This document shows positions 16,558-37,435 of a stretch of 64,000 nucleotides of DNA, piece by piece. Both the position numbers and the translations under genes were made by a program. Source of the stretch: an uncultured bacterium (GTDB lineage Bacteria > Bacillota > Clostridia > Oscillospirales > Ruminococcaceae). Each line of letters begins with the position of its first letter. Position 1 is the stretch's first letter. The stretch is from positions 8,182 to 72,181 of the forward strand of contig CAJMLQ010000002.1 in assembly GCA_905214265.1 (NCBI GenBank), read 5' to 3'. Below the pieces are notes generated by a model. The model did not search any database, was not told the DNA's origin, and saw nothing but the letters and a program-made list of their open reading frames with translations.

Positions 16558-16597
16558 AGAGCATGCATTTTCAATATAAAAGGAGGTACGCGCAGAC

Positions 16598-18837: not shown

Positions 18838-18850
18838 AGGGGGAGCCGTG

Positions 18851-19855: not shown

Positions 19856-19920
19856 GTTTTATTACAGACTGGGAATGGATCGGCTCGCTGCCAATTTTGC
19901 TCGTTTATTACAGAAAGCAG

Positions 19921-19950
19921 AAACCCGCTGGCCTAAGCCGGCGGGTTTTT
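19921..19950 (+). terminator. Intrinsic terminator after etfA
   Basis: CCCGCTGGC / GCCGGCGGG stem, CTAA loop, T5 run 19946-19950. Confidence 0.7.
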
Positions 19951-20083
19951 GCGACAATCCACAAAAATTTTTTGAAAAATAGTATACAATATTTCTCTAA
20001 AATGATTTGTCGAAAAAATCTTCCATTCCAGCAAAAAGAAAACCCCCGCCAATCAAAATCGGCAGGAGATTCCTTTGGGAAAA

Positions 20084-20118
20084 GGTTATGGTGTTGCTGA
20101 GAATAGTTTACCATAACC
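20084..20118 (-). terminator. Candidate terminator downstream of the GRE gene
   Basis: 9-bp stem GGTTATGGT / ACCATAACC, followed on the minus strand by TTTT (20080-20083). A second weaker hairpin plus T-run lies at ~20029-20066. Confidence 0.45.
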
Positions 20119-20224
20119 AGCCGGATGTTTCTGTTGAAATCTGTCGAAGGGAAACATTTTGCAGTTTTGCCAAGAAAGAATTCCCGGAATGACAGAACAT
20201 GCAAATGCGGCCTGGACAAAGAAG

Positions 20225-22369
20225 TCAAAAGCCGTTTAAAAACCGGTCTACGATCAATTGACGGAATTCTGGCGATAGCGTGGCAAAGTAGGCCGTAAAG
20301 CCGGTCACCCGGACGACTAGGTCGGGATAGAGATCGGGGTTTTTATGAGCAGCCAGCAGCTTTTCCCCATCCAGAACATTGATATTGATCAGTGTCCCGC
20401 CCAGTTCAAAGTGGGTGCGAATGAGTTCCATCACCCGCTGGACGCCGCCATCCTCTCTGGAGATCTGAGGATCAAATTCCAGTTGGAGGGGAGCCGTGTT
20501 CCCGTAGCCGGGCTGAACCCCCGCGATTCCAGTGGACATGGCCGTGACTGCGCCATCCCGGCGGAAACCGGGGTTGGGGTTTGCACCATGTGAGATGGGC
20601 GCGCCTGCCTTCCGGCCGTTGGGCGTTGCGCCGACGACGGAACCGAACTCAATGGTTTGCGACCAGGAGAACCATCCCGGGATAAGCTGGCGCTTTCCGG
20701 GCATGGGCTGAGCCTTGACCAGTTGGGTGAACACCTGGGTGATGCGCTTGGCCCAGCCGTCGGAGAGGCTTCCGCCTTGGCAGTACCGGTTAGAAGAAGA
20801 GAGCATGAGACGGATGCGTTCTCCGGCAGCACCGGCAAAATCCTGTTCCAGTGCGGCGAAAAGCTCGGACCAGGTCAAACGGCCTTCTTTTTCAATGCGC
20901 TGCTCCATGGCACCGAAGGAGTCGGCGGCTACTGCCAGCCCCGCACCGTCCACTCCGACAGTGAATAGGTCGGCGCACTGGGTGATGTCCTTCCCCTGCT
21001 CCAGTGTGTTGTGCATCATCAGGTTCATGACCAGCTCTGGCGTGACCTCCCATTGATGGTCCAAATGAAGATTGATCCCGGCGGCGGTAACCTCCACCGC
21101 TCTCTTCAGGTGAGCGGAGAACCGGCAGAACAGCTCTTCGCAAGAGGGATTCGGTGACTTTTTCATCTCCTTGAGAGCAACTTCCAGCACCTTGGCCACG
21201 TTGATTTTCACGGTGTCGTTCATGGGGCATTCCCGGCCGGGGACGCACATCCAGTGGCACCCCACCGCAATGCGGCTGCGGGCGGTAGCCTCGTCAAAGC
21301 CGTTTTTCATGTAGCCCTGGGACAGCGGCAGATCTCCGCAGAAGCGGGGCCATCCATTGCGGTCCTCAAAAAGATATTCTATCGCCTTGCGGAGAAATTC
21401 CGGATCACAGTCAGGGTGGACCCGCACCGTCAGATTGACGGCGATATTCAGGGAGTGGGCCGCTTCTAGAATGAGATAGGAAAACGGGTTGGTGATATCG
21501 CGCCCCTGTTCGTCGATGCCGGAGATCTGATAGTAATGAGGATCGATGAGCAATAGATTGGCCACCAGGAATCGGGCGGTATCCTGGTCCAGTATGCCTG
21601 CTGCTAGATCCTGTTCGTAATAGGGCAGCAAAAGCTGGTCCAGCTGAAATCCGGCCCCGTCCCGGGTGTAGATACGGGACACGCAGTTAAAATAGGCCAC
21701 CCACTGGCAGGTCTGCCAGAAGGTTTTGGGTGGATTTGAGAGGATCGCCTCATTGGCTTCCAGCATTTTTTGAAGGCTTTCCCGCAGCTCCGGACGCTCC
21801 TCAGTGGTTATAAGCCGCTGGATTTCCGCGATGTGCCGCCGGATAAAGCCCATGATTGAGAGGAGAACCCGTTCCTCCGCCTGGTAAAAGCCGTCGGGGT
21901 CGCCATTTTGGTCCCGGCAGCGCCGGACCTTTTCCAGCAGCCCGCCAAAGCCCAGCGAAAGGCCGATGCGATAATCGCAGGCCAGATGCGCGTCATTTTC
22001 AATGCCGGAGGAAATGTTGTAAAGCTCCTGCTCCGGCTTCAGACCGTCATAAGGGAAGCGCTGCTTATCCCAGCGCCGACCTCGCCGGTAGTTGGCCAGC
22101 ATATCCCGCCAGCGGCAGCAAAGCCGCTCCAAAGGGTCCACATAGACCGGGTGCTGGTCCAACAGGGCGCAGAAATTGTCCGCCATTCCCTGATACCCGT
22201 AGAATCCGCCGTCCGGGTTGTTGGGGATCGGGGTAAACGAGTAGCCCGGCGGGAAGGGAACCGTCCCGTAATCGTCGGCGTTCATATAGCCCTGCTGCTC
22301 CCGTTTGGCCAAGGTGTGGGCGATTTTCTTTTCCCGAAGGAGTCGGAGCCGATCTGTATCCGTCAACAT
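20225..22369 (-). CDS. Glycyl radical enzyme (PFL-fold), uncharacterised subtype
   Basis: C-terminal glycyl-radical motif VVRVTGFTAYF (Gly690). ATPNGRKAGAPISHG finger. Thiyl-Cys loop RIAVGCHWMCVPG (Cys371). ATG 22369 overlaps the activase stop by 7 nt. 714 aa. Confidence 0.9.
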   Translation of the reverse strand: MLTDTDRLRLLREKKIAHTLAKREQQGYMNADDYGTVPFPPGYSFTPIPNNPDGGFYGYQGMADNFCALLDQHPVYVDPLERLCCRWRDMLANYRRGRRWDKQRFPYDGLKPEQELYNISSGIENDAHLACDYRIGLSLGFGGLLEKVRRCRDQNGDPDGFYQAEERVLLSIMGFIRRHIAEIQRLITTEERPELRESLQKMLEANEAILSNPPKTFWQTCQWVAYFNCVSRIYTRDGAGFQLDQLLLPYYEQDLAAGILDQDTARFLVANLLLIDPHYYQISGIDEQGRDITNPFSYLILEAAHSLNIAVNLTVRVHPDCDPEFLRKAIEYLFEDRNGWPRFCGDLPLSQGYMKNGFDEATARSRIAVGCHWMCVPGRECPMNDTVKINVAKVLEVALKEMKKSPNPSCEELFCRFSAHLKRAVEVTAAGINLHLDHQWEVTPELVMNLMMHNTLEQGKDITQCADLFTVGVDGAGLAVAADSFGAMEQRIEKEGRLTWSELFAALEQDFAGAAGERIRLMLSSSNRYCQGGSLSDGWAKRITQVFTQLVKAQPMPGKRQLIPGWFSWSQTIEFGSVVGATPNGRKAGAPISHGANPNPGFRRDGAVTAMSTGIAGVQPGYGNTAPLQLEFDPQISREDGGVQRVMELIRTHFELGGTLININVLDGEKLLAAHKNPDLYPDLVVRVTGFTAYFATLSPEFRQLIVDRFLNGF

Positions 22370-23178
22370 GTTGTCACAACCTTTCCTGCAATGCGTACGG
22401 GAAACCCAGCGGCGCGGGCCAGCCATCCCATGGTTTCCGCGGAGGGAATTTCATACCGTGGCTCCTCTATCCCGGCGGCCGCCGCCTTTTGAAGTCCTAA
22501 GGGATGATAGGGGAGCAACTCATAGTAGCGCAGATGGGAAAGCCCCTGCGCAAAGCCTGCAATCGCCCCGATCTCTTCCGGTGTGTCGTTGACCCCGGGG
22601 ATGACGGGCGTGCGGAGAACCAGGGGAATCCCCAATTCGTCCAGCCGGCGAAGATTTTCCAGAATCAGTTGGTTGGATACGCCGGTGACCTCACGGTGTA
22701 GGTTGTCGTCCCAGACCTTCAAATCGGCCATGACCAGCCCGCACTGGCGTAGGACCGGCTCCGCCGTCTTCCAAGGCGCGAAAAGGGACGTTTCTACAGC
22801 CGTAGAGATTCCTTCGCCCCGGCAGGCCGCCAGAAGCTCCCGGGAAAAATCCGCCTGAAAGAGCGGTTCTCCGCCGGAAAGGGTCATTCCGCCGCCGTCG
22901 CCGTAGTAGGGCCGGTCCCGGCAGATCTCATCCAAAACCTCTTCCACCGTCATCTCCCGGCCGCAGACGACCTGTGCCCCGGAAAAGCAGCCGCTCTCAC
23001 ACTGGCCGCAGCCGATGCACCGTTCCGGATAGCGCAGGATCTGGGGTTTCGGGTCGATGCACTCGGGATTGTGGCACCACTGGCAGTGCAGGGGACAACC
23101 CTTGCAGAACACCGTCGTCCGCAGGCCCGGTCCGTCGTGGACGGAGGCCCGCTGGATGTCTGCGATGATCCCATTCAT
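22363..23178 (-). CDS. Glycyl-radical enzyme activating enzyme (radical SAM)
   Basis: CPLHCQWCHNPE radical-SAM cluster plus a ferredoxin-like CIGCGQCESGC insert. RBS GGAGGTGGAG before ATG 23178. The track's 23265 start is a TTG extension. Confidence 0.9.
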   Translation of the reverse strand: MNGIIADIQRASVHDGPGLRTTVFCKGCPLHCQWCHNPECIDPKPQILRYPERCIGCGQCESGCFSGAQVVCGREMTVEEVLDEICRDRPYYGDGGGMTLSGGEPLFQADFSRELLAACRGEGISTAVETSLFAPWKTAEPVLRQCGLVMADLKVWDDNLHREVTGVSNQLILENLRRLDELGIPLVLRTPVIPGVNDTPEEIGAIAGFAQGLSHLRYYELLPYHPLGLQKAAAAGIEEPRYEIPSAETMGWLARAAGFPVRIAGKVVTTC

Positions 23179-23236
23179 GACTCCACCTCCAAAAAGAACT
23201 TGAGAAAAGCCGGCGCTCGGGCGTCCCTCCGAGTCC

Positions 23237-23265
23237 AATATAACATTCCGCTCCTGTGCCTGCAA
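23237..23265 (-). promoter_or_regulatory. Candidate internal promoter for activase and GRE (TTGCAG-17-TGtTATATT)
   Basis: On the minus strand, TTGCAG (23265-23260), 17-nt spacer, extended -10 TGTTATATT (TATATT = 23242-23237). Located in the 166-nt gap after the fourth oxidoreductase gene. Confidence 0.4.
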
Positions 23266-23344
23266 TGGGCGGAATAGAATCGGACTGTGCCGGAAGGAAT
23301 CTTTGTGCCGCCGGTGCGGTTTTTCCCATGATGCGCGGATTTCC

Positions 23345-24457
23345 TTATGGCAATACGCTCTCCACCGGTTCCTCCCGGCCGCTGCGGGCGGAGGCCATGG
23401 CCGCGTCCAGCAGGGCCAGCACCTGGACGTTTTGCTCCAGCGTGACGGTGGGATGGAAAGGCGTGCCCTCCATCCGGTGGGCCGCGTAGTGCCAAGCCAT
23501 GTTGCGGAATCGGTCCGGCAGCTCCAGGACCGGGATCTCCAGGGGATTCCCCAGCCGATCCACCGCTCGGAGCCGGAGTCCGCCGTTTTCCCGGACGTAA
23601 AAGATCACCCCGTCCCGGCAGAAGACGGTGGGTCCTCCAGGGATCGCCGCCTGCGGGACGGTCCAGGTCCCTTCCGCCGTGGTCATGGCGTGAGGATAGC
23701 GGATCAGAAGGGCCACATTGTCGGGACAATCGGCCTCCGGCGTGCCCAAGTTCATGGCCAGAGCCCGGACGCCGCAGGCTGGTTCCGGCTGGAACCAGCG
23801 GCTGTACATGCAGCCGTAGCAGCCGATATCCAGAAACGCGCCGCCGCCGTACCGGGCGTTGTACCACCAGGTGTGGGCCCGCTGCTCCGGCGTCATCTCC
23901 TCCGCGGCGGCGGAGACGCCCCGATGCCGGGCACCGGTCCCCAGGGGACCGGTGTGGCCGTTTAAGTAGGAGAGCTTCAGAAGCGGCCCGGCGGTTTCCA
24001 GCTCCAGGGCCTGCTTCAGCTGATGCCCCGTGGGCCGCCAGGTGGTAGGCCAGTTGACCACCGCCTCGATGCCGGTCTCCTGGACGATTTTCCGGATGCG
24101 GAGGGCTTCGGAGAGGGAAGCGGCCATGGGCTTCTCGATGCAGACATCGACTCCCCGGCAGGCGCATTGCTCTACGGCCGCCGGTTTTCCGGCGTTGTCG
24201 GTGAGGATGTAGGCAATGTCCGGCTTCACGGTGTCCAGCAGCTCCTCCACTGTGGCAAAATAGGGAACCTGATAGGTCTCGCAGACATTTCTCCGGTTCC
24301 AGGCTCGGGTGTAGCGGCCCTGAGTCTGCTCCTCCAGCTCCAGAGGAATATCGGTGCAGCCGGCAAGCTCGGTGTCCGGCTGCTCGGAGAGATAAAGAGC
24401 GATTTCATTGACATGCATGTGGGCGAACCCGATAATGACAGCTTTAATGGGCTTCAT
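23345..24457 (-). CDS. Gfo/Idh/MocA-family oxidoreductase (paralog 4, degenerate dinucleotide loop)
   Basis: N-terminus KAVIIGFAHMHVN in place of GxGxxG/A. IEKP motif. Overlaps the upstream gene by 14 nt. Confidence 0.8.
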   Translation of the reverse strand: MKPIKAVIIGFAHMHVNEIALYLSEQPDTELAGCTDIPLELEEQTQGRYTRAWNRRNVCETYQVPYFATVEELLDTVKPDIAYILTDNAGKPAAVEQCACRGVDVCIEKPMAASLSEALRIRKIVQETGIEAVVNWPTTWRPTGHQLKQALELETAGPLLKLSYLNGHTGPLGTGARHRGVSAAAEEMTPEQRAHTWWYNARYGGGAFLDIGCYGCMYSRWFQPEPACGVRALAMNLGTPEADCPDNVALLIRYPHAMTTAEGTWTVPQAAIPGGPTVFCRDGVIFYVRENGGLRLRAVDRLGNPLEIPVLELPDRFRNMAWHYAAHRMEGTPFHPTVTLEQNVQVLALLDAAMASARSGREEPVESVLP

Positions 24458-25577
24458 AGTGCTTCAACTCCTCCGCGCGGACCTCCCGGCCTTCTTCTGC
24501 CGAGCGGTAGTAGCATTCGATGGCCTTGCTGACCTCCAGGTTTTGCTCCGGCGTGATAAGGTACTCCGCCTTCCCGGCCAGAACGTCCAGAATGTGCTCA
24601 TACATGTACCAGTGCTGTTCAAAGGGCGTACCCTTGTACGCGCCGTTGTCGAACCATTTCATGGCGGTTTCGGACTGGAATTTCCCCACGTTGCGGTAAA
24701 GAGTCTCCCCATTGACGGACAAGCCGCCCCGGTCGCCGCAGATAACCATATTCAAGTTGGTGGTGGGGAGGTTGACGGCCCACGAAAACTTGAAATTGAC
24801 GGTGAAGCCCCCTTCCAGCCGGAGAAAACCGGTGGAAAACTCCTCCACGGAAAACTCTGCCGGATCATAGGGCCGGGGGGTGAAGGTGCCGCTGTAAGCA
24901 CCGCTTTCCGCGATGCTGATAAGGACCTCATCTCCGCGGTTGGCGATCTTCCGGTAAGCCGCACCGCTGACTGCCTGGACCTTGGGGCTTCCCACGATCC
25001 ACAGCAGGGAGTCGATGAGATGGACGCCCAGATCGCAGAAGGGCCCGCCGAAATTGTGCTCCTTCATGTGGAACATCCCCCAGGTGGGAATGCCACAGCG
25101 GCGGATGAAGGAGATGTCGGAGAAATAGGGTGTTCCCAGTTCCCCGCTGTCCACCAGGTATTTGGACTGCTGCATGTAGTTGCGCCAGCGCATGCACTGG
25201 CAGGGGAAGAGCCGCTTTCCGCAGGCGGCGGCCACGGCGAACATTTCCTCCGCGTCAGCCAGAGAAACGGCCATTGGCTTTTCGCAGGCCACGTCCGCCC
25301 CGGCACGGAGGGCAGCTAGGGTCCACTGCTTGTGGTAAACGTTTGGTGTGCAGACCGAAACAAAGTCCGGCTTCAGTTCGTCGAGCATTTTTTGAGGATC
25401 GGTGTACCATTTGGGAATATCATGGCGCTTGGCGGTTTCTTCCGCCGCCTCCGGCCGGATATCCGCGATGCCGATGACTTCTGCCAGTCCCTTTTTGCGG
25501 AGGTTGCCGATGGCGGGGAGATGGGCGGCGTTGGCGATCATCCCCGCGCCGATGAGTGCGATCCGGAGCTTTTTCAT
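24444..25577 (-). CDS. Gfo/Idh/MocA-family oxidoreductase (paralog 3, canonical)
   Basis: RIALIGAGMIANAAHLP Rossmann start and CEKP motif. ATGA overlap with the upstream gene. Confidence 0.85.
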   Translation of the reverse strand: MKKLRIALIGAGMIANAAHLPAIGNLRKKGLAEVIGIADIRPEAAEETAKRHDIPKWYTDPQKMLDELKPDFVSVCTPNVYHKQWTLAALRAGADVACEKPMAVSLADAEEMFAVAAACGKRLFPCQCMRWRNYMQQSKYLVDSGELGTPYFSDISFIRRCGIPTWGMFHMKEHNFGGPFCDLGVHLIDSLLWIVGSPKVQAVSGAAYRKIANRGDEVLISIAESGAYSGTFTPRPYDPAEFSVEEFSTGFLRLEGGFTVNFKFSWAVNLPTTNLNMVICGDRGGLSVNGETLYRNVGKFQSETAMKWFDNGAYKGTPFEQHWYMYEHILDVLAGKAEYLITPEQNLEVSKAIECYYRSAEEGREVRAEELKHYEAH

Positions 25578-26647
25578 GCAGGTTCCTCCTCAAATGGATT
25601 TCGGACAGCCTCCGTCCGGCCGCTTTCGCAGGAGCGGATGCCGGCGTCCAGGGCGGCCTGGACCTTCAGATTGAAGGCGGGTTCCACCAGTTCGAAAAGG
25701 GGCGTTCCTTTTCCCAGGTGGTCTAAAAAATTGCGTCCGATGTTGTCTCCCGATACCGTGTCGTATTCCTCATCTGGTTGGGTGAAGCCGTGGGAGGCCC
25801 CGCGGTAGACCCGGACGGTGCTGGAATGGCGGTCGGCGACGATGGTTCCCTCCGTTCCGTAGATCACCGGGCCGGAAGGGATTTCCCCGCTGTTGAAGGT
25901 GGACCAGGAACCCTCAAGGAATCCCACGGAATCGCCAAAGTCTAGCAAGAAAGCAGAGTAGTCTTCCACATCGCTGAAGGGGACGAGAAAATTCTTGCGC
26001 ATACCGCTGACTCGCTTCGCCATCCCCCCCAGAAACCAGGTGGTGAGTAGGCAACCGTACCCGGCGTAATCCATAATGGAGCCACCGCCCCGGCTGTGCT
26101 GGTACCACCAGTGCTGGGAGAGCTCCTCCTGCTGGCCGTAGGAGAAGGGCCCGGTGGTGGCGGGGCTGCGGTAGTGGCAGCGCAGAGGACGGCCGATCTT
26201 TCCGGCGGCGACCAGCTCTCGGGCTTTTCGGAAGGAGCCGAACCAGGCCACCGGCCAATTGACGGCCAGCGCCGCGCCGGAGGCCCTGGCCGCCCGGCAC
26301 ATGGCAAGCCCGTCCTCCAGGGAGAAGGCCATGGGTTTCTCCACAACAACGTGGATACCACGGGAGAGAAGCTCACAGACTACCTCTCCGTGGCTCCGGA
26401 CATCGCTGCACACAAGGGCGATGTCCGGCCCTTGCGCCAGCAGATCCCGGTAATCGGCATAAAGCCTTGGGGGATCCGGGACGTTCATGCTCAGAGCCAT
26501 TCGTTTCTCCGGCCCCTCCGGGTGGAAAGGCGGCATGTCGGCGCAGCCCAACCACTCCACCTCGTCCAGATACCGGTTAAAGTCGTGGTACAGGATCTGC
26601 GCATGGACATGGGCCAGGCCAATGACGGCAATTTTCCATTTTTTCAT
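25574..26647 (-). CDS. Gfo/Idh/MocA-family oxidoreductase (paralog 2, degenerate dinucleotide loop)
   Basis: KIAVIGLAHVHAQ N-terminus and VEKP motif. RBS AGGAGGAAC. Confidence 0.8.
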   Translation of the reverse strand: MKKWKIAVIGLAHVHAQILYHDFNRYLDEVEWLGCADMPPFHPEGPEKRMALSMNVPDPPRLYADYRDLLAQGPDIALVCSDVRSHGEVVCELLSRGIHVVVEKPMAFSLEDGLAMCRAARASGAALAVNWPVAWFGSFRKARELVAAGKIGRPLRCHYRSPATTGPFSYGQQEELSQHWWYQHSRGGGSIMDYAGYGCLLTTWFLGGMAKRVSGMRKNFLVPFSDVEDYSAFLLDFGDSVGFLEGSWSTFNSGEIPSGPVIYGTEGTIVADRHSSTVRVYRGASHGFTQPDEEYDTVSGDNIGRNFLDHLGKGTPLFELVEPAFNLKVQAALDAGIRSCESGRTEAVRNPFEEEPA

Positions 26648-26659
26648 AGCAGTTCCTCC

Positions 26660-27757
26660 TTAAAAAAATGTTTTGAGGGAAACCAGTCCGCCGGTCTGAA
26701 TGGCCTCGGGAATGGCGCACATGATCTCGATGACGTGGCGGGCCTGCTCCGGGGAGAGAAGGGGGTCTGTGTCCGTTTCGATGGCCCGGATGATGTCCGC
26801 CAGACAACAGCACTGAGTAAAATGAGCCGGACGGGTGCTTTTCACCCAGGTCTGTGGCTCCATCCATCCGCGGAGGCCCAGCTGGGGAGAGTCGATGTAG
26901 ACTTTGGGATTGGGCCAGACGCCGTTGTGGGGTTCAAAGGAGATGGTGCCCCGATCGCCGTAGATCTCCATGGGGACGCAGCGGGTGGCGCGCTGGGTGA
27001 AGCCGGTGTCCACGAAGCCGATGCGGTCGCCGCCGAAATCCAGGGTGATGTAGTAGGTGTCTGGCATCTGGTCAGTGCGGATCACCTGGCCGTCCAGAGC
27101 CCCGGAACGGATGGTGCGGGTCTTGAGGGCGTTGGCGGCCATGCAGCCCACCCGCTTGGCTGGACCCATGACGCCGGTGACCTTGTGAAGGGCGTGGACC
27201 CCCATGTCGTAAAGGGCGCCGGCCCCGGGCTGGTAAAACCAGGAGGGATCGGAATCTCGGTACTGGAAGTACTCCGGCCCACCATGGGTGGATACGCATT
27301 TGACCGAGAGTACATCGCCGATGGCCCCGTCGGCGATCATCTGTTTGGCCATGAGCATGTCAGGGGTCATCATGTGGATGGGGACGCAGCAGAATTTCAC
27401 CCCGGCTTTTTTCGCGGCCTCCATCTGCTGGGTCATCTGCTCGACCGTGGGAGCGGCGGGTTTCTGGGAAATCAGGTGCTTTCCAGCCTGCAGCACCGCC
27501 ATATTGATCTCATGGTGGGCTGGGATCGAGGCTGCGTCGATGGCAATGTCGAATTCACCCCAGTCAAGAAGCTCCTCCACACTGGAAAACCACCGGGGAA
27601 TACCGTACTTCTCCGCCGCGTCCCGGGCCCGTTCCGGGATGATGTCACAGGCGGCGGCGCACTCCGCGTTGGCCGTCTGGGCGATGTGGGGAAAATACTG
27701 CCAGTTTGCGAAAGAGCCGCTGCCGATGACTGCGACCCGCCATTTGCGCTGTTCCAT
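26660..27757 (-). CDS. Gfo/Idh/MocA-family oxidoreductase (paralog 1, canonical)
   Basis: RVAVIGSGSFANW Rossmann start and SQKP motif. RBS GAAGGAGGAAAAA. First gene of the leftward unit. Confidence 0.85.
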   Translation of the reverse strand: MEQRKWRVAVIGSGSFANWQYFPHIAQTANAECAAACDIIPERARDAAEKYGIPRWFSSVEELLDWGEFDIAIDAASIPAHHEINMAVLQAGKHLISQKPAAPTVEQMTQQMEAAKKAGVKFCCVPIHMMTPDMLMAKQMIADGAIGDVLSVKCVSTHGGPEYFQYRDSDPSWFYQPGAGALYDMGVHALHKVTGVMGPAKRVGCMAANALKTRTIRSGALDGQVIRTDQMPDTYYITLDFGGDRIGFVDTGFTQRATRCVPMEIYGDRGTISFEPHNGVWPNPKVYIDSPQLGLRGWMEPQTWVKSTRPAHFTQCCCLADIIRAIETDTDPLLSPEQARHVIEIMCAIPEAIQTGGLVSLKTFF

Positions 27758-27786
27758 AATTTTTCCTCCTTCAGACGCTTTTTCTG

Positions 27787-27815
27787 TTTACAATCATAGC
27801 GCAGAGGATTATAAT
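27787..27815 (+). promoter_or_regulatory. Candidate promoter of the AraC regulator (TTTACA-17-TATAAT)
   Basis: TTTACA 27787-27792, 17-nt spacer, TATAAT 27810-27815. The -10 sits in the palindrome ATTATAAT, which also reads TATAAT on the minus strand. Confidence 0.45.
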
Positions 27816-27871
27816 TGAAAATAAACAAAGCAGCCGGATCGATGCACAATCTGAACATAGGGGGGACTGCG

Positions 27872-28819: not shown

Positions 28820-28930
28820 ATGTTTCAATTGTGTATTTTTGCGCAAAAATCGCACATTGCAAAGATGGACTTGGTTCAGTATAATTAGGGCAGACTGCCG
28901 GATAGAATGTCCGGCTATGGAGGTGCTGAA

Positions 28931-30172
28931 ATGGAATACATAACCGAAACCCGGCAGGTGCCGGTGCAGCCTTTCCACGACGTGATCGTGGTGGGAGGCG
29001 GCGTGGCAGGCGCAGCGGCGGCAGTAGCTGCTGCGCGGCAGGGAAGCAGGGTTCTGCTCATCGAAAAAAGCGCCATACTGGGCGGCCTGGCCACCTTGGG
29101 ACTCATCGCCTGGTACGAGCCTCTCTGTGACGGGGAGGGCCACCAGATGATCGGAGGCATTGCGGAGGAGCTTCTGCGGTTGGCTATCCGTTACGGCTAC
29201 GACAGCCTCCCCGGGGAATGGCGGGAAGGCTCGCCGGAACCCGGTCCCGGCGCCCCGCGCTACGCCACCCACTTTTCCCCCAACCTCTTTGCTCTGGCGC
29301 TGGACCGCTGGCTCACCGAGGCCGGAGTCGAGCTGCGCTTTGATATGGCCGGCTCCTACCCAGTCATGGAGGGCGGGCTTTGCAAGGGCGTCATCACCGA
29401 GAGCAAAAGCGGACGGGAGTTTTTTCCCGCCGCCGTGGTAGTCGACGCCACCGGTGACGCGGATATCCTTTCGCGGGCTGGGGTCCCCTGTGTGCTGCAC
29501 GGGAACAATTTCCTTTCCGTGGTCACGATGCGTGCGTCCCTGGATACCTGCCGAAAGGCGGCGGAGAGCGGCAACATTCTGCAGATGCGGACCTGGTTCG
29601 GCGGCGGCTCCGATCTCTTCGGAAACGGCCAGCCGGAAGGGGTGCCGCCCTTCAGCGGCGTGACCAATGAAGAGGTGACGGCTTTCCTTCTGGCCGGGCG
29701 TAAGCTGATCTTCGACAAGGTGAAGAACGAGGACCGTAAATCCCGGGACATCATCACACTGCCCGGCATGGCCCAGTTCCGCAAGACCCGGCGCATCCAG
29801 GGCGACTGGACTCTTCAGGAGTCCGACGTCTACCAGCATTTTGAGGATTCTATCGGCGCAGCGGGAGACTTCACCAAGAGGGGACAACGGTTTGAAATTC
29901 CCTACCGCTGCCTTCGGAAGACCGGATTCCCCAATCTCCTGGCAGCTGGACGGATCGTCAGCGCGGATGGCCGCGGCTGGGAGGTGATCCGGGTCATTCC
30001 AGTCGCCGCTATGACCGGACAGGCTGCAGGCACTGCCGCCGCTCTGGCGGCGCGGACCCGGACCGCCGTAGATAAAATGGAGATATCGCTCCTTCAGCAG
30101 ACGCTGGCTGCAAATCAGGTTCAGATTCATATTCCCATAGGCCTGGATAAACCAACCGTTCCGGCGGTTTAG
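28931..30172 (+). CDS. FAD-dependent oxidoreductase (PF12831-like)
   Basis: HDVIVVGGGVAGAAAAVAAARQGSRVLLIEK dinucleotide-binding start. RBS GGAGGTG before ATG 28931. Confidence 0.8.
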   Translation: MEYITETRQVPVQPFHDVIVVGGGVAGAAAAVAAARQGSRVLLIEKSAILGGLATLGLIAWYEPLCDGEGHQMIGGIAEELLRLAIRYGYDSLPGEWREGSPEPGPGAPRYATHFSPNLFALALDRWLTEAGVELRFDMAGSYPVMEGGLCKGVITESKSGREFFPAAVVVDATGDADILSRAGVPCVLHGNNFLSVVTMRASLDTCRKAAESGNILQMRTWFGGGSDLFGNGQPEGVPPFSGVTNEEVTAFLLAGRKLIFDKVKNEDRKSRDIITLPGMAQFRKTRRIQGDWTLQESDVYQHFEDSIGAAGDFTKRGQRFEIPYRCLRKTGFPNLLAAGRIVSADGRGWEVIRVIPVAAMTGQAAGTAAALAARTRTAVDKMEISLLQQTLAANQVQIHIPIGLDKPTVPAV

Positions 30173-30337
30173 ATGTTTTCCTGCCTGCATCCGCTTCCCC
30201 TCTGCTCCGCTTGTCCGAAGCAGGGGGGATTTTATGTAGCAGGATATTCCTGTTTTATAAGCGAAGCCATTTTTGCCGAAAATCCAGCAGGAAAGGGCTT
30301 TGAGGGGAATACCGTTCTTTTGCACGAATTTCGGTTA

Positions 30338-30366
30338 TTGTAATTTTCGCGGAGGATTGCTATACT
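30338..30366 (+). promoter_or_regulatory. Candidate promoter of the second ABC uptake operon (TTGTAA-17-TATACT)
   Basis: TTGTAA 30338-30343, 17-nt spacer, TATACT 30361-30366. About 115-nt leader before ATG 30483. Confidence 0.45.
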
Positions 30367-30482
30367 TGTGCCATCGTCAGGACCGTGTTCGGCTGTAGGA
30401 GCAGGCAGCGGAGATTTCCGTTTCCTCTGGACGGTCTGAGGCCTTCACGCTGGCGGAAACGGAAGCATACAGGAGTGATAAC

Positions 30483-31439
30483 ATGGACAAATCGATTACA
30501 AATCCCAGTGCCGCCAGCATCCGGGCGAAAAGGCGTTCCCCCACTCTGTGGAAAAACCTGAAACGGAGCTGGCAGCTTTACCTGCTGATCCTCCCCGCAG
30601 TCGCCGCAGTTTTTATTTTTAATTACATCCCTATGTACGGCGTGCAGATCGCATTTAAGGAATTTCGGAGCAGTCTTGGCATCTGGGGCAGCGAGTGGGT
30701 GGGACTCAAGCATTTTGTCCGCTTTCTGACCTTTCCGGATTTCTGGAATATCCTAAAAAATACGATCTCGATCAGCCTGTATTCTCTGGCGACCTTTCCC
30801 TGCGCGGTGATTCTGGCTCTGCTTATCAACGAGATCGGCAACGTCGCTTTTAAAAAGACTGTCCAGATGATCACATATGCGCCGCATTTTATTTCTACAG
30901 TGGTCGTCTGTTCGATGATCATTTTGTTCACCAACCGGAGTAACGGCCTGTTTAACAACATCCGTGCCGCCCTGGGGGCTGAGCGAGTGGATTTTATGAC
31001 GATCCCCAGTCTCTTTTCCAGCATTTACGTCTGGTCAGGCGTCTGGCAGGGGGTCGGCTGGGGAACCATTATCTACCTCGCCGCCCTGGCGGGCATCTCG
31101 CCAGAACTCCATGAGGCAGCCCGCATCGACGGCGCCAGCCGGTTCCAGATCATCTGGCACATCAATATTCCCGGCATCCTGCCGACCGTGATCACCATGT
31201 TGATTCTCAACACCGGGAACCTTCTGTCCGTGGGGTTTGAAAAGATCTTCCTTCTGCAGAACTCCTTGAACCTCAGCGCTTCCCGGGTCATTTCCACCTA
31301 CGTTTATGAAATCGGCATTCAGGGCGGACAGTTCAGCTATTCTGCCGCCATCGGTCTGTTCAACAACGTCGTAAACATCCTTTTCATCGCGATCGTCAAC
31401 CAAATTTCGAAAAAAGTTACCCGGATTAGCCTGTGGTAA
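30483..31439 (+). CDS. Sugar ABC transporter permease (LplB/MalF-like)
   Basis: Paralog of 12142-13092. HEAARIDGASRFQIIWHINIPGILP EAA loop. Confidence 0.9.
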   Translation: MDKSITNPSAASIRAKRRSPTLWKNLKRSWQLYLLILPAVAAVFIFNYIPMYGVQIAFKEFRSSLGIWGSEWVGLKHFVRFLTFPDFWNILKNTISISLYSLATFPCAVILALLINEIGNVAFKKTVQMITYAPHFISTVVVCSMIILFTNRSNGLFNNIRAALGAERVDFMTIPSLFSSIYVWSGVWQGVGWGTIIYLAALAGISPELHEAARIDGASRFQIIWHINIPGILPTVITMLILNTGNLLSVGFEKIFLLQNSLNLSASRVISTYVYEIGIQGGQFSYSAAIGLFNNVVNILFIAIVNQISKKVTRISLW

Positions 31440-31458
31440 ATCGGAAAGGGGCAGAATT

Positions 31459-32355
31459 ATGCGGCAAAGCCGTTCGGACCGGGTGTTTGAATGGGTCAAC
31501 ACCCTTATCATGATCGCAATCGTCCTCATCATGCTGTATCCACTCTATTTTATCGTCATCGCGTCGTTTTCAGAGCCCTATGACGTAGCAAAAGGAAACG
31601 TGGTCCTCCTGCCCAAGGGATTTACCCTGGAGGCGTACCAAAGTGTTTTTCGGGAAAAACTGATCTGGACCGGGTACCGGAATACGCTTTTTTATACCTT
31701 TTTTGGAACGCTCTACAACCTGGCGACTCTGATACCGGCCGCCTATGTCCTCAGCAAAAAAAAACTGCCGGGCCGTACGATTCTCTCTTGGTTCTTCTTC
31801 ATCACCATGTATTTCGGAGGCGGCATGATCCCGACCTACCTGCTGATGAAGGATCTCCGCCTCCTCAACACACCCTGGGTGCTGATCCTGGGCGGGGTCA
31901 GCTGCTATAACCTCATCGTCACCCGCCAGTTCTTCAGCTCCTCAATCCCAGAAAGCCTCTATGAGGCAGCTTATATTGACGGAGCTTCCGAGTTCAAGTC
32001 CTTTCTCCGCATAGCGCTTCCCCTGGCGGCGCCTATTATTGCGGTTATGACACTGTTTCACGCTGTGGGCCACTGGAACAGTTATTATAACGCCTTGCTT
32101 TACATCCGGGACCGGGAGCTTTACCCGCTGCAGCTGGTCCTTCGGGATATCCTCATCACCCAGAAGACCATGCTGGCCAACATCGATCCGTCTCAGGGCG
32201 CCGACGTGGTGGAATGGGCCGCCCGCCGTGCCTACCTGGCGGAGGCGATGAAATATTCTGTGATCTTCATCGCCAGTGCTCCGCTGCTGATCGCCTATCC
32301 CTTTGTTCAGAAGTTTTTTGTCAAGGGTGTGATGATCGGTTCGGTAAAGGAATGA
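31459..32355 (+). CDS. Sugar ABC transporter permease (LplC/MalG-like)
   Basis: Paralog of 13107-14000. YEAAYIDGASEFKSFLRIALPLAAP EAA loop. Confidence 0.9.
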   Translation: MRQSRSDRVFEWVNTLIMIAIVLIMLYPLYFIVIASFSEPYDVAKGNVVLLPKGFTLEAYQSVFREKLIWTGYRNTLFYTFFGTLYNLATLIPAAYVLSKKKLPGRTILSWFFFITMYFGGGMIPTYLLMKDLRLLNTPWVLILGGVSCYNLIVTRQFFSSSIPESLYEAAYIDGASEFKSFLRIALPLAAPIIAVMTLFHAVGHWNSYYNALLYIRDRELYPLQLVLRDILITQKTMLANIDPSQGADVVEWAARRAYLAEAMKYSVIFIASAPLLIAYPFVQKFFVKGVMIGSVKE

Positions 32356-32434
32356 TCTGCGTATCCGTATTTGCGCCGCTGCCAGCCAGCGGGCAATGAC
32401 GATAAAAACCAGAAAGAAAAGGGGAGTTCTATTT

Positions 32435-34180
32435 ATGAAATCGGTGAAATCAGTTGCCAGTATCCTTTTTGCACTGATCCTCGCCGCCTCCGCAGCGGGG
32501 TGCGGAGGCAGTCCCGTGGAATCGGTGCCAGAAGGTCCTTCCAGCCAGCCTTCGGAAAGCTTATCGGTATCCAATGAACCGGAAGTCCCGTCTTACCTGA
32601 ATCTCGACAGCGACTTGCCCGTTGTAAAAGAGGGCGAAACCGTTTCTATGACCATGGCGGTAGCCCAGTCTTCTGACTATGGCGACTGGAAGGGCTCCCA
32701 TTTTTGGAATTTTGTCCAGCAGAAGATGAACATCGACGTGGAAGTGGAGCAGATCTTCAACCGGGATGAGTACGTTCAGCTCCAGTTTGCGGCGGATGCT
32801 CTGCCAGACGTAATGATCGGCATGAACCTGACCACCGCAGACCAGATCCGCTACGGCATGATGGAAAAGCAGCTGATCCCGCTTACGGAATACGTCAACG
32901 ACACCTATATGCCGAATCTAACCAAAATCTATGCGGAAAACCCCTCCTGGGAGAGCATGATCAAGGCTCCGGACGGCAATATTTATTCCTTCGGCTATAT
33001 GTGGGCTATTACCAATGCTTCACAGTATCCCAAGCGCCAGATCAACACCAAATGGCTGGAAGGGCTGAACCTGGAAATGCCCACTACCCTGGATAGGCTC
33101 ATTGAAGCCCTGAGGGCGTTTAAGACGATGGGCGATGATATCGTCCCCATGGGCGGTTCCTACACCACCTATAATCCTTGCTATATCCTGCTCAATGCCC
33201 TGGGATATGTGACCAACGATTCCAAGGGGATCACGCCGGCTCTGCGAGACGGAGAGGCAGTCATCCCCGCCGGGGACCGGGAGCGGTACGGGGAATTCCT
33301 CAAGCTGATGAACCAGTTCTACAACGAGGGCCTGGTCTCCAGCGAATTCTACACCCTGGATGAAATCGGGACCCGCGCGATCATCGCTGAGAATAAGGCG
33401 GGGCTGATCAATACCGATGCCTTTATCGACCTTCCGGCTGTGGAAAGCTTCCAGCAGTACATCACCATGCCTCCGCTGACCAGCCAGTACTGCGAAGAAC
33501 CCTTTGTTATGATCAATAGCCCCATCACCACCGGCGGTTTTGTCATTACCAAAGAATGTGAATATCCTGAGGCAGCCATCCGCTTCGCCAATTATATTTA
33601 TTCCGACGAAGGGAACAATATGGCCTGGGTCGGCGCGGTGCGTGGCAGCGAAAACCTGCTGGAGGGCTGGGGCGGCTGGTACCTGGATGAAAACTACAAC
33701 CGATTGGATGTGGACCGGGTCGAGAATCCGGATTTGTACCCCAACGCCGTGGAATACCTCCGGAAACGGGTCGCAGGCTTCAATATGGGGGCAATCGGCC
33801 AGAATCTCAACGAGTTCAACTGGCGGCCCGAGGCCAACGGACTTCCGCCCCGCGATATGAAGGAAGTGTACCTGGCCAATCCCACCAACGGCGACTTCTG
33901 GTTCCGAGCCAGCGTCATCGACAATCTGATGCCTTACCGGACAGACGAGGTGTATCCCTACCTGACCTTCTTCTCCGAGGAAGAAAACAACCGGATCACC
34001 GAGCTGTCCACCGTTATCAACGCCCATATCCAAGAGGCATCCGCCAAGTTTGTGACAGGCGCGCGGCCCTTCAGCGAGCTGGATGCGTACTTTGACGAGC
34101 TGGACGCCCTGGGCTTTCAGGAATATCTGGGCTACTACAAAACCGCTTATGAAACCTATCTGAAGAACATGAATTCATAA
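32435..34180 (+). CDS. Extracellular solute-binding lipoprotein (large LplA-type)
   Basis: MKSVKSVASILFALILAASAAGCGG lipobox. RBS AAAGGGGAG before ATG 32435. About 580 aa. Confidence 0.9.
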   Translation: MKSVKSVASILFALILAASAAGCGGSPVESVPEGPSSQPSESLSVSNEPEVPSYLNLDSDLPVVKEGETVSMTMAVAQSSDYGDWKGSHFWNFVQQKMNIDVEVEQIFNRDEYVQLQFAADALPDVMIGMNLTTADQIRYGMMEKQLIPLTEYVNDTYMPNLTKIYAENPSWESMIKAPDGNIYSFGYMWAITNASQYPKRQINTKWLEGLNLEMPTTLDRLIEALRAFKTMGDDIVPMGGSYTTYNPCYILLNALGYVTNDSKGITPALRDGEAVIPAGDRERYGEFLKLMNQFYNEGLVSSEFYTLDEIGTRAIIAENKAGLINTDAFIDLPAVESFQQYITMPPLTSQYCEEPFVMINSPITTGGFVITKECEYPEAAIRFANYIYSDEGNNMAWVGAVRGSENLLEGWGGWYLDENYNRLDVDRVENPDLYPNAVEYLRKRVAGFNMGAIGQNLNEFNWRPEANGLPPRDMKEVYLANPTNGDFWFRASVIDNLMPYRTDEVYPYLTFFSEEENNRITELSTVINAHIQEASAKFVTGARPFSELDAYFDELDALGFQEYLGYYKTAYETYLKNMNS

Positions 34181-34271
34181 AAAACATCGGAATCAGAAGC
34201 ACCCAAGGGCGGAATTCCATCCGCCCTTAGGTGCTGTCCGGTTTTTTCAATAAAGCACAGGAGGACCTCCC

Positions 34272-36401
34272 ATGGCTGACATCAAGCGGAAAAGGCCCCG
34301 CCTTCTTTTTCAATATCTGTTTTCCTATCTATGTATTACCCTTCTCTCCTGTTCGCTGATCGGGCTTTCGCTGTTCAGCGTTTTCCTCCACGACCTGGAA
34401 CAGGAGGACCGCCGGTCCAATCTCCACAAGCTGGCCCTTGCCGCTGCGGATATGGAAAACCAGCTGGACATTCTGGAGGAGGTTTCCTACAAGCTGGCCT
34501 CTCAGGTTGTCTACCTGCCGACCTATTTGGAACAGAATCCTTATTATGAGATGGAGATGCTGGAGGATTTCAAGACCTATCAAAACATGTCTCCCCTGAC
34601 GCAGGAGTATTTCCTCCTGTATCACAGGAACGGCGGGCACCTCTACCGTTCCACCGGAACCACGGTTCCAACGGAGCTTTACATCCGCCGGGTGCTGGGA
34701 ATTTCCGGAGCGGCGGAGCTGGCCGAATCGCTGGTTAGCTTGGAACAGTTCTCTGTTTTTGACCCAGAGGAGGGCCCAGTGGTGCTGTTTGCCTTTCCGG
34801 TCCGGATGGGAGGCACCTCTGGCAACGCGACCCTGTGTTTTGCCGTGGAGCGGCGTGAACTCCTTCAGCGGATCACGGACGCCACCGGCGGGTTTGACGG
34901 GGCGGTGGAGCTCTTTCTGGAGGACCGGTCTCTTGCGGCCGATCCGCTTTCGCCAGAGGAAAAGCTGGTGGAACTGGCGTCTGAGGACGCGCCGGGTTCC
35001 CGGTTCCGGCTCGTTCTTCATTATCCGCGGATGCGGATCTTCCATCACTTTTCCGGATTCCGAAGCTTGAGCCTGGGCATTATCGGCGTCACCATCGCCC
35101 TTTTGACCGGAGTAGCTGTCTTCACCGCGTATCGGAATGTAAAGCCTATCCGTCGCATCAAGGCCGGATTGGCAGCCAAGGGCTTCCCAGGAGAGCCGGG
35201 CCGCAACGAGCTGGATGATATCGAAGACGCCGTATTCCAGGCCCTGGAAAACAATGCCCACGCCAACGAACAGCTGACGCAGCAGATGCGGGAGCTCCGC
35301 AGCCAGGCCCTTCGGCTCCTCCTAAACGGCGACAGCTCGGAGGATGTGGTACAGCGCCTGCGACTGCTGGGGATTTCCTTGGCTAATGATTTTTACGCGG
35401 TCCTGCTGATTCGCTTCCAGGACCGTGAGATCCTTGCGAATGATCCGGTCCTCGACTGGCTGGCGGATCTTTCCGATGGCAGCATCCGGTTTTATCCGGT
35501 ATGCGACCGGCAGAAAGGAGGTTCCATCGCCATTGTTCTGGAGCTGACCGGCGTCGCAGAGGCCCAAGAGGCACTGGAACTGACAGAGGCTCTGCTGGAA
35601 ACCAAGGGCCTTCCGGCAGAGCTGGGCCTTGGCGGAGCCTACGAGGCGCTGGGCCGTCTTCCGGCCTCCTATCTAGAGGCGACAGCAGACTGCAGGCGCC
35701 GTGCCAGGGAGGACAGTGTTTCGGAGGAGGAGCTTCTCACCTACGACAATCGGTATGTCCTTTGGATGCTCCGGGCCGTTCGCGCTGGGGACCTTGAAGA
35801 GGCACAGCAGCGGCTGGACGATTTTGTTGCGGAGTTGGAATGTACCGCACCGTCGTTTTTGCTGCAGAGGTATATCTTTTCCGATGTGATGGTGATGCTG
35901 ATCACGGCGGGCCGGGAACTGAACGTCCCCATCGGAAAGCAGCAGGCCGGGAAGATCCTCGGGGCCCAAGACCTCCCGGCCTTTCAGGAAAGCGTTCTCG
36001 CCATTGTGGAGGAGCTTTGCCGTGGAGAACAGCGCGGCCTGGAAAACGAGGAGCAGGAGTTTTCCCGCCGCATTCTGGCCTATATCGCAGAGCACTGCCT
36101 GGAATATGATCTGAGCCTGGAACGTCTTTCTCAGGAATTCGGTCGGTCGGTCAGCGTCCTGAGCCGCCTGATCAAGCAAGCCGCCGGAGAAAACTATAAG
36201 GACTATGTGATCCTATTGAAGATCGAACATGCCAAACACCTGCTGAAAGAGGGCTGTTCTGTCACCGAAACCTGCGAGCGGGTAGGATACTCCAACCTCT
36301 CCCATTTCATCCGGACCTTTAAGCAGGTCGCTGGATCCACGCCTTCCGCCTATAAAAAGCAGGCCGGCTCCGGGATGCCTGGGAGTATGGAGGGTACATA
36401 A
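34272..36401 (+). CDS. Membrane-anchored AraC-family sensor regulator (intact)
   Basis: Two TM segments flank a ~230-aa extracytoplasmic domain, followed by a long helical region and a C-terminal AraC HTH (LERLSQEFGRSVSVLSRLIK...VGYSNLSHFIRTFKQVAGSTPSAY). Confidence 0.85.
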   Translation: MADIKRKRPRLLFQYLFSYLCITLLSCSLIGLSLFSVFLHDLEQEDRRSNLHKLALAAADMENQLDILEEVSYKLASQVVYLPTYLEQNPYYEMEMLEDFKTYQNMSPLTQEYFLLYHRNGGHLYRSTGTTVPTELYIRRVLGISGAAELAESLVSLEQFSVFDPEEGPVVLFAFPVRMGGTSGNATLCFAVERRELLQRITDATGGFDGAVELFLEDRSLAADPLSPEEKLVELASEDAPGSRFRLVLHYPRMRIFHHFSGFRSLSLGIIGVTIALLTGVAVFTAYRNVKPIRRIKAGLAAKGFPGEPGRNELDDIEDAVFQALENNAHANEQLTQQMRELRSQALRLLLNGDSSEDVVQRLRLLGISLANDFYAVLLIRFQDREILANDPVLDWLADLSDGSIRFYPVCDRQKGGSIAIVLELTGVAEAQEALELTEALLETKGLPAELGLGGAYEALGRLPASYLEATADCRRRAREDSVSEEELLTYDNRYVLWMLRAVRAGDLEEAQQRLDDFVAELECTAPSFLLQRYIFSDVMVMLITAGRELNVPIGKQQAGKILGAQDLPAFQESVLAIVEELCRGEQRGLENEEQEFSRRILAYIAEHCLEYDLSLERLSQEFGRSVSVLSRLIKQAAGENYKDYVILLKIEHAKHLLKEGCSVTETCERVGYSNLSHFIRTFKQVAGSTPSAYKKQAGSGMPGSMEGT

Positions 36402-37303: not shown

Positions 37304-37399
37304 AAGAATGACTCCTTCCGTTCTTTTCTTCAGAATAGCAGAAAAAATCGAAAACCGCAAGGCCCGGAACTTGACATTTTGGCAGCAAAATTAATAAAA

Positions 37400-37424
37400 A
37401 CAGGCCCACATGGTGCAGGCCTGT
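37400..37424 (-). terminator. Intrinsic terminator after the GH38 gene
   Basis: On the minus strand, ACAGGCC...GGCCTGT stem followed by TTTTT (the + strand A-run 37396-37400). Confidence 0.6.
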
Positions 37425-37435
37425 TCTGGGAATGG

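Follow-up and report, generated by a model that had tools for sequence, protein, structure and literature searches.

A glycyl radical enzyme clade with tryptophan in place of the C-x-E glutamate, often encoded beside Gfo/Idh/MocA dehydrogenases in putative sugar-catabolic loci

Layout of the divergent locus

In a stretch of 64,000 nucleotides from an uncultured member of the Ruminococcaceae (assembly GCA_905214265.1, contig CAJMLQ010000002.1, forward strand positions 8,182 to 72,181; hereafter the window), positions 20225-36401 hold a cluster in which a glycyl radical enzyme (GRE) and its activase are encoded together with four dehydrogenases of the Gfo/Idh/MocA family and divergently from a sugar-type uptake system. 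Glycyl radical enzymes carry out chemistry in the gut that other anaerobic enzymes cannot perform, and earlier assignments of GRE clades have led to new nutrient niches (choline, hydroxyproline, isethionate, anhydroglucitol). An initial annotation, made from the letters alone, had described two divergent units, and every one of its gene and domain calls was borne out when the open reading frame listing was combined with Pfam and NCBIfam scans: all 12 genes of the region are present with the expected domains.

The leftward operon, on the minus strand, runs in the order Gfo4 (26660-27757), Gfo3 (25574-26647), Gfo2 (24444-25577), Gfo1 (23345-24457), activase and GRE. The activase (22363-23265) is predicted to be a GRE-activating radical SAM enzyme with 283.5 bits against a cut-off of 174 for TIGR02494 and the motif CPLHCQWC. 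The open reading frame of the GRE covers 20225-22426, and translation is likely to start at Met20 (position 22369), yielding a protein of 714 amino acids. Downstream, a terminator-like hairpin (20068-20043, minus strand; 11-bp stem with six GC pairs, followed by a T tail) would end the operon. A small open reading frame overlapping the GRE stop codon (19908-20228, minus strand, 106 aa) was treated as probably spurious, as it has no Pfam match and encloses this hairpin.

On the plus strand, the rightward unit comprises the cupin-AraC regulator AraC1 (27872, or alternatively 27842, to 28819; Pfam AraC_binding and HTH_18), a PF12831 FAD-dependent oxidoreductase (28907-30172; 213 bits), two CUT1-type ABC permeases (30483-31439 and 31459-32355, each with a BPD_transp_1 domain), a large lipoprotein of 594 aa that represents an oligosaccharide-type substrate-binding protein (SBP; 32396-34180; SBP_bac_1, lipobox AAGC), and AraC2, a membrane-anchored AraC sensor/regulator with GGDEF_2 and HTH_18 domains and two hydrophobic segments (34272-36401). 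The nearest solved relatives of the SBP are the oligosaccharide binders FusA (5g5y) and AlgQ1/2. Permeases and lipoprotein are the parts of a CUT1 importer, and no ABC ATPase gene is present in the locus; CUT1 importers of Firmicutes usually share an ATPase that is encoded elsewhere. Since further promoter-like sites precede the FAD-dependent oxidoreductase gene and the first permease gene, the rightward unit may consist of several transcripts.

The control region between the two units (27758-27871) has the predicted length of 114 bp and contains overlapping, face-to-face promoter-like sites, one on the plus strand at 27787-27815 (TTTACA-17-TATAAT, 11/12) and one on the minus strand at 27821-27793 (9/12). 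Neither the control region nor the remainder of the locus matched an Rfam family, and riboswitch control was rejected. The only operator-like repeat found in the spacer is one weak direct repeat of 11 nt, and the spacer of locus L001 is too similar for an informative comparison. A divergent homologue of AraC1 is encoded upstream of Gfo4 in eight related loci (L001, L004, L011, L017, L020, L024, L025 and L033), and AraC1 is likely to be the local regulator of the Gfo-GRE operon. L001 (CAKXAF010000031.1) is filed under a metagenome-assembled genome of an 'uncultured thaumarchaeote'; its proteins are 92-97% identical to those of the window locus, gene for gene, so that a binning error involving a bacterial contig is almost certain.

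The glycyl radical enzyme and its clade

The GRE scores 266 bits for the PFL-like domain (PF02901) and 56 bits for the Gly_radical domain (PF01228), and it contains a Cys loop, VGC(371)HW(373)MC, as well as a Gly motif, VVRVTG(690)FTAYF. Its segment RVTGFTAYFATLSPEFRQLIVDR matches the superfamily fingerprint RVxG[FWY], save for an arginine at the glutamine position, and Cys371 aligns with the catalytic cysteine of PflD and with Cys433 of GDH. Judged by its domains, the fingerprint, the cysteine and the adjoining activase, the predicted protein is a member of the PFL-like division of the GRE superfamily. Though the Pfam GRE domains pass, the protein stays below the cut-off of every NCBIfam subfamily or equivalog model, reaching 274 bits against 678 for TIGR01774 (the PFL2/glycerol dehydratase subfamily), 219 against 1109 for the PflD model NF007437 and 59 against 994 for the formate-lyase model TIGR01255. 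Among solved structures, PflD from E. coli comes closest in sequence with 197 bits and 26% identity, next to glycerol dehydratase and YbiW, the latter at 27%. An AlphaFold2 model built on 59 homologues (pLDDT 90, pTM 0.90) and compared by Foldseek gave TM-scores of 0.80-0.85 to all PFL2-type eliminases and isomerases at about 20% identity, with PflD at the top (0.85) and YbiW not above glycerol dehydratase or CutC.

The Cys loop sets the protein apart. In the HMMER alignment, VGCHWMCVPG of the GRE pairs with VGCVELSIPG in PflD and with IGCVEPQKPG in glycerol dehydratase, such that the position of the glutamate in the C-x-E motif is taken by tryptophan (C-H-W) and the motif typical of eliminases and isomerases is missing. 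According to a GRE review of June 2026, C-x-E is retained by all six C-O eliminases, by the C-N and C-S eliminases and by the three isomerases, and its glutamate is bound to a hydroxyl group of the substrate. Each of the 120 homologues from an initial database search has the motif G-C-(N/H/S/G)-W, as do 102 of 102 full-length clade members drawn from genomes and metagenomes (46-93% identity). The clade is thereby an exception to the motif by which GREs that cleave C-O, C-N or C-S bonds are at present all defined. The equivalents of His164 (DAH) and Asp447 (ND) of GDH are retained. The GRE 1,2-eliminases, i.e., the B12-independent glycerol and propanediol dehydratases, HypD and CutC, resemble the clade in their fold (TM 0.80-0.83) and in their Gly and Cys loops, and radical C-O cleavage is a plausible common reaction; they are unlike it in that the clade lacks C-x-E, falls below the TIGR01774 cut-off and occurs in a sugar context.

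Sequence comparison assigns the GRE to a coherent, distinct and widespread 'GC(N/H)W' clade that is uncharacterised and comprises at least 2,766 clusters at 90% identity (E <= 1e-100). Its hosts include Clostridia, Christensenellales, Spirochaetes, Hydrogenispora, Paenibacillaceae and Rhodothermales, and some members occur in contexts resembling polysaccharide utilization loci (PULs) of Bacteroidota. The habitats are guts, many of them herbivore and human, and sediments, where the clade is common in both freshwater and saline settings. Hydrogenispora ethanolica and [Clostridium] leptum DSM 753 are cultured hosts. In [Clostridium] leptum, the operon (L082/L112, P0121) falls into a cluster that unites 3,435 metagenomic sequences at 90% identity and is thus very prevalent in human gut data; the genes that flank this operon are present in the type strain, DSM 753. 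In one locus, L030, a second, distant GRE (5629-7788; about 26% identity, nearer to YbiW) is encoded 3.6 kb from the clade member.

Source databases label proteins of the clade 'formate acetyltransferase'. Taken together with the lactate-utilisation operon next to the cluster, this label would suit a fermentative formate-lyase, or else a small-diol dehydratase, that stands beside unrelated sugar dehydrogenases without any functional link. We consider such a coincidence very improbable. At the tip of the Cys loop there is a single cysteine and not the Cys-Cys pair of the formate lyases PFL and TdcE, the score for TIGR01255 and those for the other equivalogs are far below their cut-offs, C-x-E is missing, synteny is conserved in both directions (see below), and the 25 Pfam families that occur most often in same-strand GRE neighbours include no microcompartment, CoA-handling or aldehyde-dehydrogenase family. 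PFL-like C-C cleavage via an acyl-enzyme intermediate was likewise rejected on account of the missing Cys-Cys pair and the lack of CoA-handling neighbours.

A more serious alternative arises from the relatives PflD and YbiW, which, in the account of Ma et al. 2024 that is relayed in PMC13450708, are the C-O lyases for 1,5-anhydromannitol-6-phosphate and 1,5-anhydroglucitol-6-phosphate, respectively, in 'anhydroglycolysis'. They resemble the window protein in being PFL-like GREs of similar length that have a dedicated activase and the His164/Asp447 equivalents and serve sugar catabolism, a role that is predicted for the window. The GRE may accordingly be a stand-alone radical isomerase or dehydratase that acts first, on an imported sugar analogue that has not been oxidised, with unphosphorylated 1,5-anhydroglucitol, 1,5-anhydromannitol or 1,5-anhydrofructose as the foremost candidates in a variant of anhydroglycolysis independent of the phosphotransferase system (PTS), or otherwise cyclitols or O-methyl sugars; the Gfo enzymes would act later, by reducing or epimerising a keto product, or earlier, by funnelling stereoisomers to the GRE substrate. 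That PflD, an anhydromannitol-6-phosphate C-O lyase, is the top match in both sequence and TM-score speaks for this possibility, which we rate as less likely than not and only slightly less probable than the reading favoured below. Against it stand the identity of just 26-27% to PflD and YbiW and the invariant tryptophan in place of the glutamate that deprotonates the C2 hydroxyl in these enzymes. The partners also differ: they are Gfo/Idh/MocA enzymes in the window, and the transporters of the clade are of the ABC, MFS or RhaT type with no PTS, which implies an unphosphorylated substrate. Finally, phmmer searches with E. coli FsaA, FsaB, GldA and FrwC gave no match in the window or in 113 related loci, so that homologues of fructose-6-phosphate aldolase, GldA and PTS are absent there; anhydroglycolysis of the E. 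coli type was rejected on this basis and because the GRE is not orthologous.

Dehydrogenase partners and gene neighbourhoods

Gfo2 possesses an IGAGMIA loop of the GxGxxA type, a CEKP motif and all three Pfam Gfo domains, and its best PDB match is DgpA (7xr9), to which it aligns in full length (residues 1-361, E 2e-51, 178 bits). DgpA, from gut strain PUE, is a member of the Gfo/Idh/MocA family; it acts on puerarin and on other C- and O-glycosides by oxidising their glucosyl group at C-3; the C-1 hydroxyl alone is not recognised, hence the C-1 substituent is free (PMC9939296, PMC8563793). Six of the seven mapped residues of the DgpA glucose pocket are identical in Gfo2 (K100, R159, W166, D182, H186 and F223), E264 is replaced by Asn, and F189 could not be mapped. 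Gfo2 is therefore a candidate NAD-dependent glycoside/pyranose 3-dehydrogenase of the DgpA type, for which oxidation at C-3 is predicted. Gfo4, with a canonical GSGSFA loop and a QKP motif, has its best PDB match in DgpA1 (9m3d, E 1.6e-24). Gfo1 (IGFAHMH) and Gfo3 (IGLAHVH) represent very divergent families (about 35 and about 21 homologous open reading frames, respectively, in the redundant set of loci), in which IGF(A/S/G)HMH replaces GxGxxG and EKP is kept. Each non-canonical Gfo gene follows a canonical paralogue (Gfo4-Gfo3, Gfo2-Gfo1), a pairing that suggests two-protein modules or altered cofactor binding.

The initial annotation had likened the locus to pathways in which a glycoside is oxidised and then cleaved by elimination. 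This analogy gains in substance, as the most conserved partner, Gfo2, resembles the 'oxidise' enzyme of the C-glycoside pathway, and activation of the sugar through C-3 oxidation would be the shared logic. The window is unlike the DgpA-DgpB/C system in that it has a GRE with activase instead of the Mn-dependent TIM-barrel lyase DgpB/C (there is no AP_endonuc_2 domain in 20225-36401) and in that its Gfo paralogues number four, of which two depart from the canonical nucleotide loop. It is conceivable, if improbable, that the locus serves the deglycosylation of polyphenol C-glycosides or other hydrolysis-resistant glycosides, the GRE replacing the metal-dependent C-C lyase DgpB/C after DgpA-like oxidation. 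DgpA and DgpA1 as the closest solved relatives of Gfo2 and Gfo4, the retained pocket residues, the C-1 substituent that DgpA does not recognise, the lack of DgpB/C homologues in the window and the many loci from herbivore and human guts would agree with such a role; the monosaccharide-type transporters of other loci (CUT2, MFS Sugar_tr, RhaT), the similarity of the window SBP to oligosaccharide binders, the frequency of the clade in sediments and in Bacteroidota PUL-like loci, and the fact that no flavonoid-handling genes were seen nearby argue against it.

In NCBIfam, the Gfo proteins have weak matches to levoglucosan dehydrogenase and BT_2158/2159, which lie far below the equivalog cut-offs (84 vs 650 and similar). 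The levoglucosan route (LgdA/B/C) and the 3-keto-glycoside route of Bacteroides (BT2157-2160) degrade anhydro-sugars and glycosides by oxidation, elimination, hydration and reduction. Like the window, they combine several Gfo/Idh/MocA dehydrogenases and a sugar transporter in one operon; unlike them, the window has an additional GRE and lacks the TIM-barrel lyase and the hydratase, which are found in about 10% of the related loci. Anhydrofructose reductase (AFR, 2glx) and human DHDH (2o48) are also among the structure matches of Gfo2, and Gfo-family enzymes are known to act as anhydrofructose reductases (PMC12441222), a point in favour of a GRE that works directly on an anhydro-sugar. Countering this, Gfo2 is far closer to the C-3 enzyme DgpA than to AFR (59 bits).

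Gene neighbourhoods were compared with the window proteins in 27 loci from genomes, 80 from metagenomes and several additional contigs; for density figures, the loci were collapsed to 79 non-redundant GREs, 28 of which are well flanked (at least 5 kb on each side). Counted from the GRE-activase core, Gfo genes occur at 1.64 per 10 kb within 0-2.5 kb, at 1.05 within 2.5-5 kb and at 0.06 within 5-10 kb, which corresponds to an approximately 20-fold enrichment within 5 kb of the GRE. A Gfo gene lies within this distance in 18 of the 28 well-flanked loci, and 15 of these 18 hold one of the Gfo2 type. In the census of contiguous partners on the same strand, Gfo genes rank first by far (59 genes in 25 loci), followed by xylose-isomerase-like TIM barrels (8) and transporters. 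The link is present in six of ten sub-clades (1, 2, 3, 6, 9 and 10) and across several phyla, and Gfo2 identity (73-77%) exceeds that of the GRE (61-64%) in the same loci. Conversely, all four sampled Gfo2 homologues (60-68% identity) are encoded in an operon with a PFL-like gene, one of which (L118) is without a Gly_radical domain. The association of Gfo and GRE genes is far beyond chance, and the conservation anticipated in the initial annotation is thus evident. The exceptional GRE of L118 (12269-14338) was called with 689 aa and may be truncated or misassembled.

The activase adjoins the GRE in nearly all related loci, and Gfo1 is located directly upstream of the activase in most loci of sub-clade 9. 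The complete layout of four Gfo genes and a divergent AraC1 recurs in nine loci (L001, L004, L011, L017, L020, L024, L029, L033 and L119). At least nine loci have a PF12831 gene next to the GRE, in varied order (L001, L004, L005, L011, L027, L033, L049, L081 and L116; in L005 it is located directly upstream of the GRE), and transporters near clade GREs are of four kinds. Transporter type and FAD-dependent oxidoreductase are variable accessories.

Further variation constrains the possible function. In Hydrogenispora ethanolica, the GRE and its activase are accompanied by nothing else than a ROK regulator and an ABC system for monosaccharides of the CUT2 type (ribose-BP-like); in L113, a regulator, a CUT1 system, the activase, the GRE and a GNAT protein are encoded. 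Bacteroidota-type loci contain the activase, the GRE, a small cupin, RhaT and SusC, others an MFS Sugar_tr transporter with GH38 or GH92. The loci that we term type B (L018 and L039-L041, about 4000-14500 in each) encode a DeoR regulator, a ManA-like isomerase, a hexokinase-family kinase, a cupin phosphoglucose isomerase and a D-allulose-6-phosphate 3-epimerase (350 bits against an equivalog cut-off of 271), then the GRE and after it an ABC importer; they have no Gfo genes, and the neighbours appear to form a funnel into fructose-6-phosphate. Both the minimal loci, in which a transporter, the activase and the GRE suffice, and the type B loci, which resemble a funnel for a hexose-like product, lend weight to a GRE that acts first and alone. 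The glycoside hydrolases flanking the GRE vary from locus to locus (GH38, GH92, GH130-like, GH2, GH10, GH36-like, rhamnosidase-like or GH78-like, heparinase-like), and with direct action on an anhydro-sugar analogue the GH38, GH92, GH10, GH2 and GH78-like contexts are left unexplained. The variation in hydrolases and partners points to a small neutral sugar-like substrate that can be reached from several glycans. GH38 genes also flank the GRE in L011, L087 and L100.

In the operon of [Clostridium] leptum, the order is RR-AraC, SBP, two permeases, Gfo4, Gfo3, TIM barrel, Gfo2, activase and GRE. It is one of eight cases in which a xylose-isomerase-like TIM barrel is encoded in the same operon as the GRE; the barrels of other loci are hydroxypyruvate-isomerase-like or epimerase-like. 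Because the barrels share the operon with the GRE, they accompany it, and the GRE is not simply the stand-in for a barrel lyase that the initial annotation had considered.

In the literature searched, including 'glycyl radical' papers since 2024, we found neither a pairing of a GRE with a Gfo-type enzyme nor a description of the clade; the June 2026 review lists no GRE paired with Gfo/Idh/MocA enzymes, and a GH130 paper that matched the search merely cites a GRE network study. A characterised GRE or pathway of this composition was not found in these sources, in line with the initial annotation, and we regard the GRE as a member of a new functional clade with a new set of partners.

Proposed role of the module and its flanking operons

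The explanation we favour, tentatively and at a probability somewhat short of even, is that the leftward operon represents a conserved module that serves the catabolism of a neutral sugar of the pyranose type or a derivative thereof, in which radical C-O cleavage is coupled to redox chemistry at C-3. Gfo2 and its non-canonical partner Gfo1 would oxidise the imported sugar at C-3, and the thiyl radical of the GRE would take the weakened hydrogen beside the C-3 keto group. The resulting keto-stabilised (semidione-like) radical would eject an adjacent C-O substituent, either the ring ether oxygen, as in 1,5-anhydro-sugars, or an alpha-carbonyl substituent beyond the reach of acid-base enzymes. 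We propose that the glutamate of C-x-E could be exchanged for tryptophan because the hydroxyl group of such a radical would be acidic, making the base dispensable. Reduction of the product to an ordinary hexose or a deoxy-ketose would fall to the remaining Gfo enzymes, joined in some loci by the PF12831 flavoprotein, AraC1 would govern the divergent promoters, and the rightward ABC system would bring in an oligosaccharide or glycoside precursor. The conserved genetic coupling of an intact GRE-activase pair to a DgpA-like dehydrogenase and to sugar uptake, the sugar transporters and many glycoside-hydrolase genes that flank the module, and the precedent of the sugar-ring-opening GREs YbiW and PflD are consistent with this proposal.

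Several observations weigh against coupling to C-3 oxidation. In roughly one third of the loci, GRE and activase have no Gfo gene beside them, as in Hydrogenispora, L113 and the Bacteroidota sub-clade 4, so the GRE appears to be workable without a linked Gfo enzyme. The initial annotation had named such a separation as an argument against a functional link; synteny is nonetheless conserved overall, and the proposed oxidise-then-cleave module is supported by it, while an obligate dependence on Gfo enzymes was an overstatement. As the tryptophan is invariant in the Gfo-less loci too, a 3-keto substrate cannot be obligatory, save if these loci handle a sugar that already has its keto group or rely on a dehydrogenase gene at another site. 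Moreover, Glu380 (about 21230-21232, minus strand), nine residues beyond the cysteine, is glutamate in 102 of 102 clade members and threonine in PflD and GDH, and it might be a relocated general base. Finally, acid-base lyases can remove groups beta to a 3-keto function, which leaves the need for a radical unexplained for some of the candidate substrates. One might speculate that 1,5-anhydrofructose, a keto-sugar with the ring oxygen alpha to the carbonyl, reconciles C-3-coupled cleavage with a GRE acting first.

For the clade as a whole, it is possible, though less likely than not, that it constitutes a new functional class of GREs that cleave a sugar bond without the C-x-E base, probably on a keto-sugar supplied by a DgpA-like 3-dehydrogenase, and that it represents a widespread anaerobic route of which there was no previous knowledge. 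Such a route would open up sugars closed to hydrolases and acid-base lyases (anhydro-, ether- and C-linked sugars and those with alpha-carbonyl substituents), and it would operate in the prevalent gut bacterium [Clostridium] leptum. A functional assignment would provide a new gut and sediment carbohydrate pathway, a test of the necessity of the C-x-E base and a better annotation of thousands of mislabelled proteins, and the cultured hosts make the question directly tractable.

Two further reactions were considered. Opening of a cyclitol ring to a hexose would fit the loci with kinase, isomerase and AlsE genes; it would require an unprecedented C-C beta-scission and is a minor possibility. Radical demethylation of O-methyl sugars is another candidate role, for which there is no direct evidence. 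Genes of the URO-D family (corrinoid methyltransferase fold) are located near the GRE in three unrelated loci (L087, 397-1422; L113, 16499-17470; L021, c74), and their recurrence could hint at O-methylated substrates.

Directly downstream of AraC2, a convergent operon on the minus strand (36473-45683) encodes an Amidohydro_2 protein, a GH38 alpha-mannosidase, an SDR, an MBL-fold protein, an RraA-like aldolase and a ManD-like dehydratase of the enolase superfamily. It looks like a non-phosphorylative sugar-acid route for a sugar released by GH38. The initial annotation had listed glycoside hydrolases and aldolases among the functions absent from the cluster, which is true within the two divergent units and not for this adjoining operon with its GH38 and RraA-like genes. 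The Amidohydro_2 protein is a possible sugar lactonase, and a protein of 418 aa without a Pfam match is also encoded there.

On the other side of the cluster, the plus-strand operon 15283-19855 encodes a LarA lactate racemase, an FAD-linked oxidase and EtfB/EtfA, i.e., a set of the electron-bifurcating lactate-dehydrogenase type, and ends 370 bp from the GRE stop codon. The Etf/oxidase set also adjoins the GRE cluster in L001, and in L049 it is co-directional and follows the PF12831 gene; this proximity may be a matter of synteny by inheritance, or else the cluster may be linked to a C3 product. An 811-aa open reading frame at 61292-63727, tried as a second GRE, proved to be a DUF5702 protein. 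Upstream of the LarA operon (10368-15070, plus strand), a separate uptake operon encodes a 566-aa SBP distantly related to the 594-aa SBP, two permeases and an M14 carboxypeptidase.

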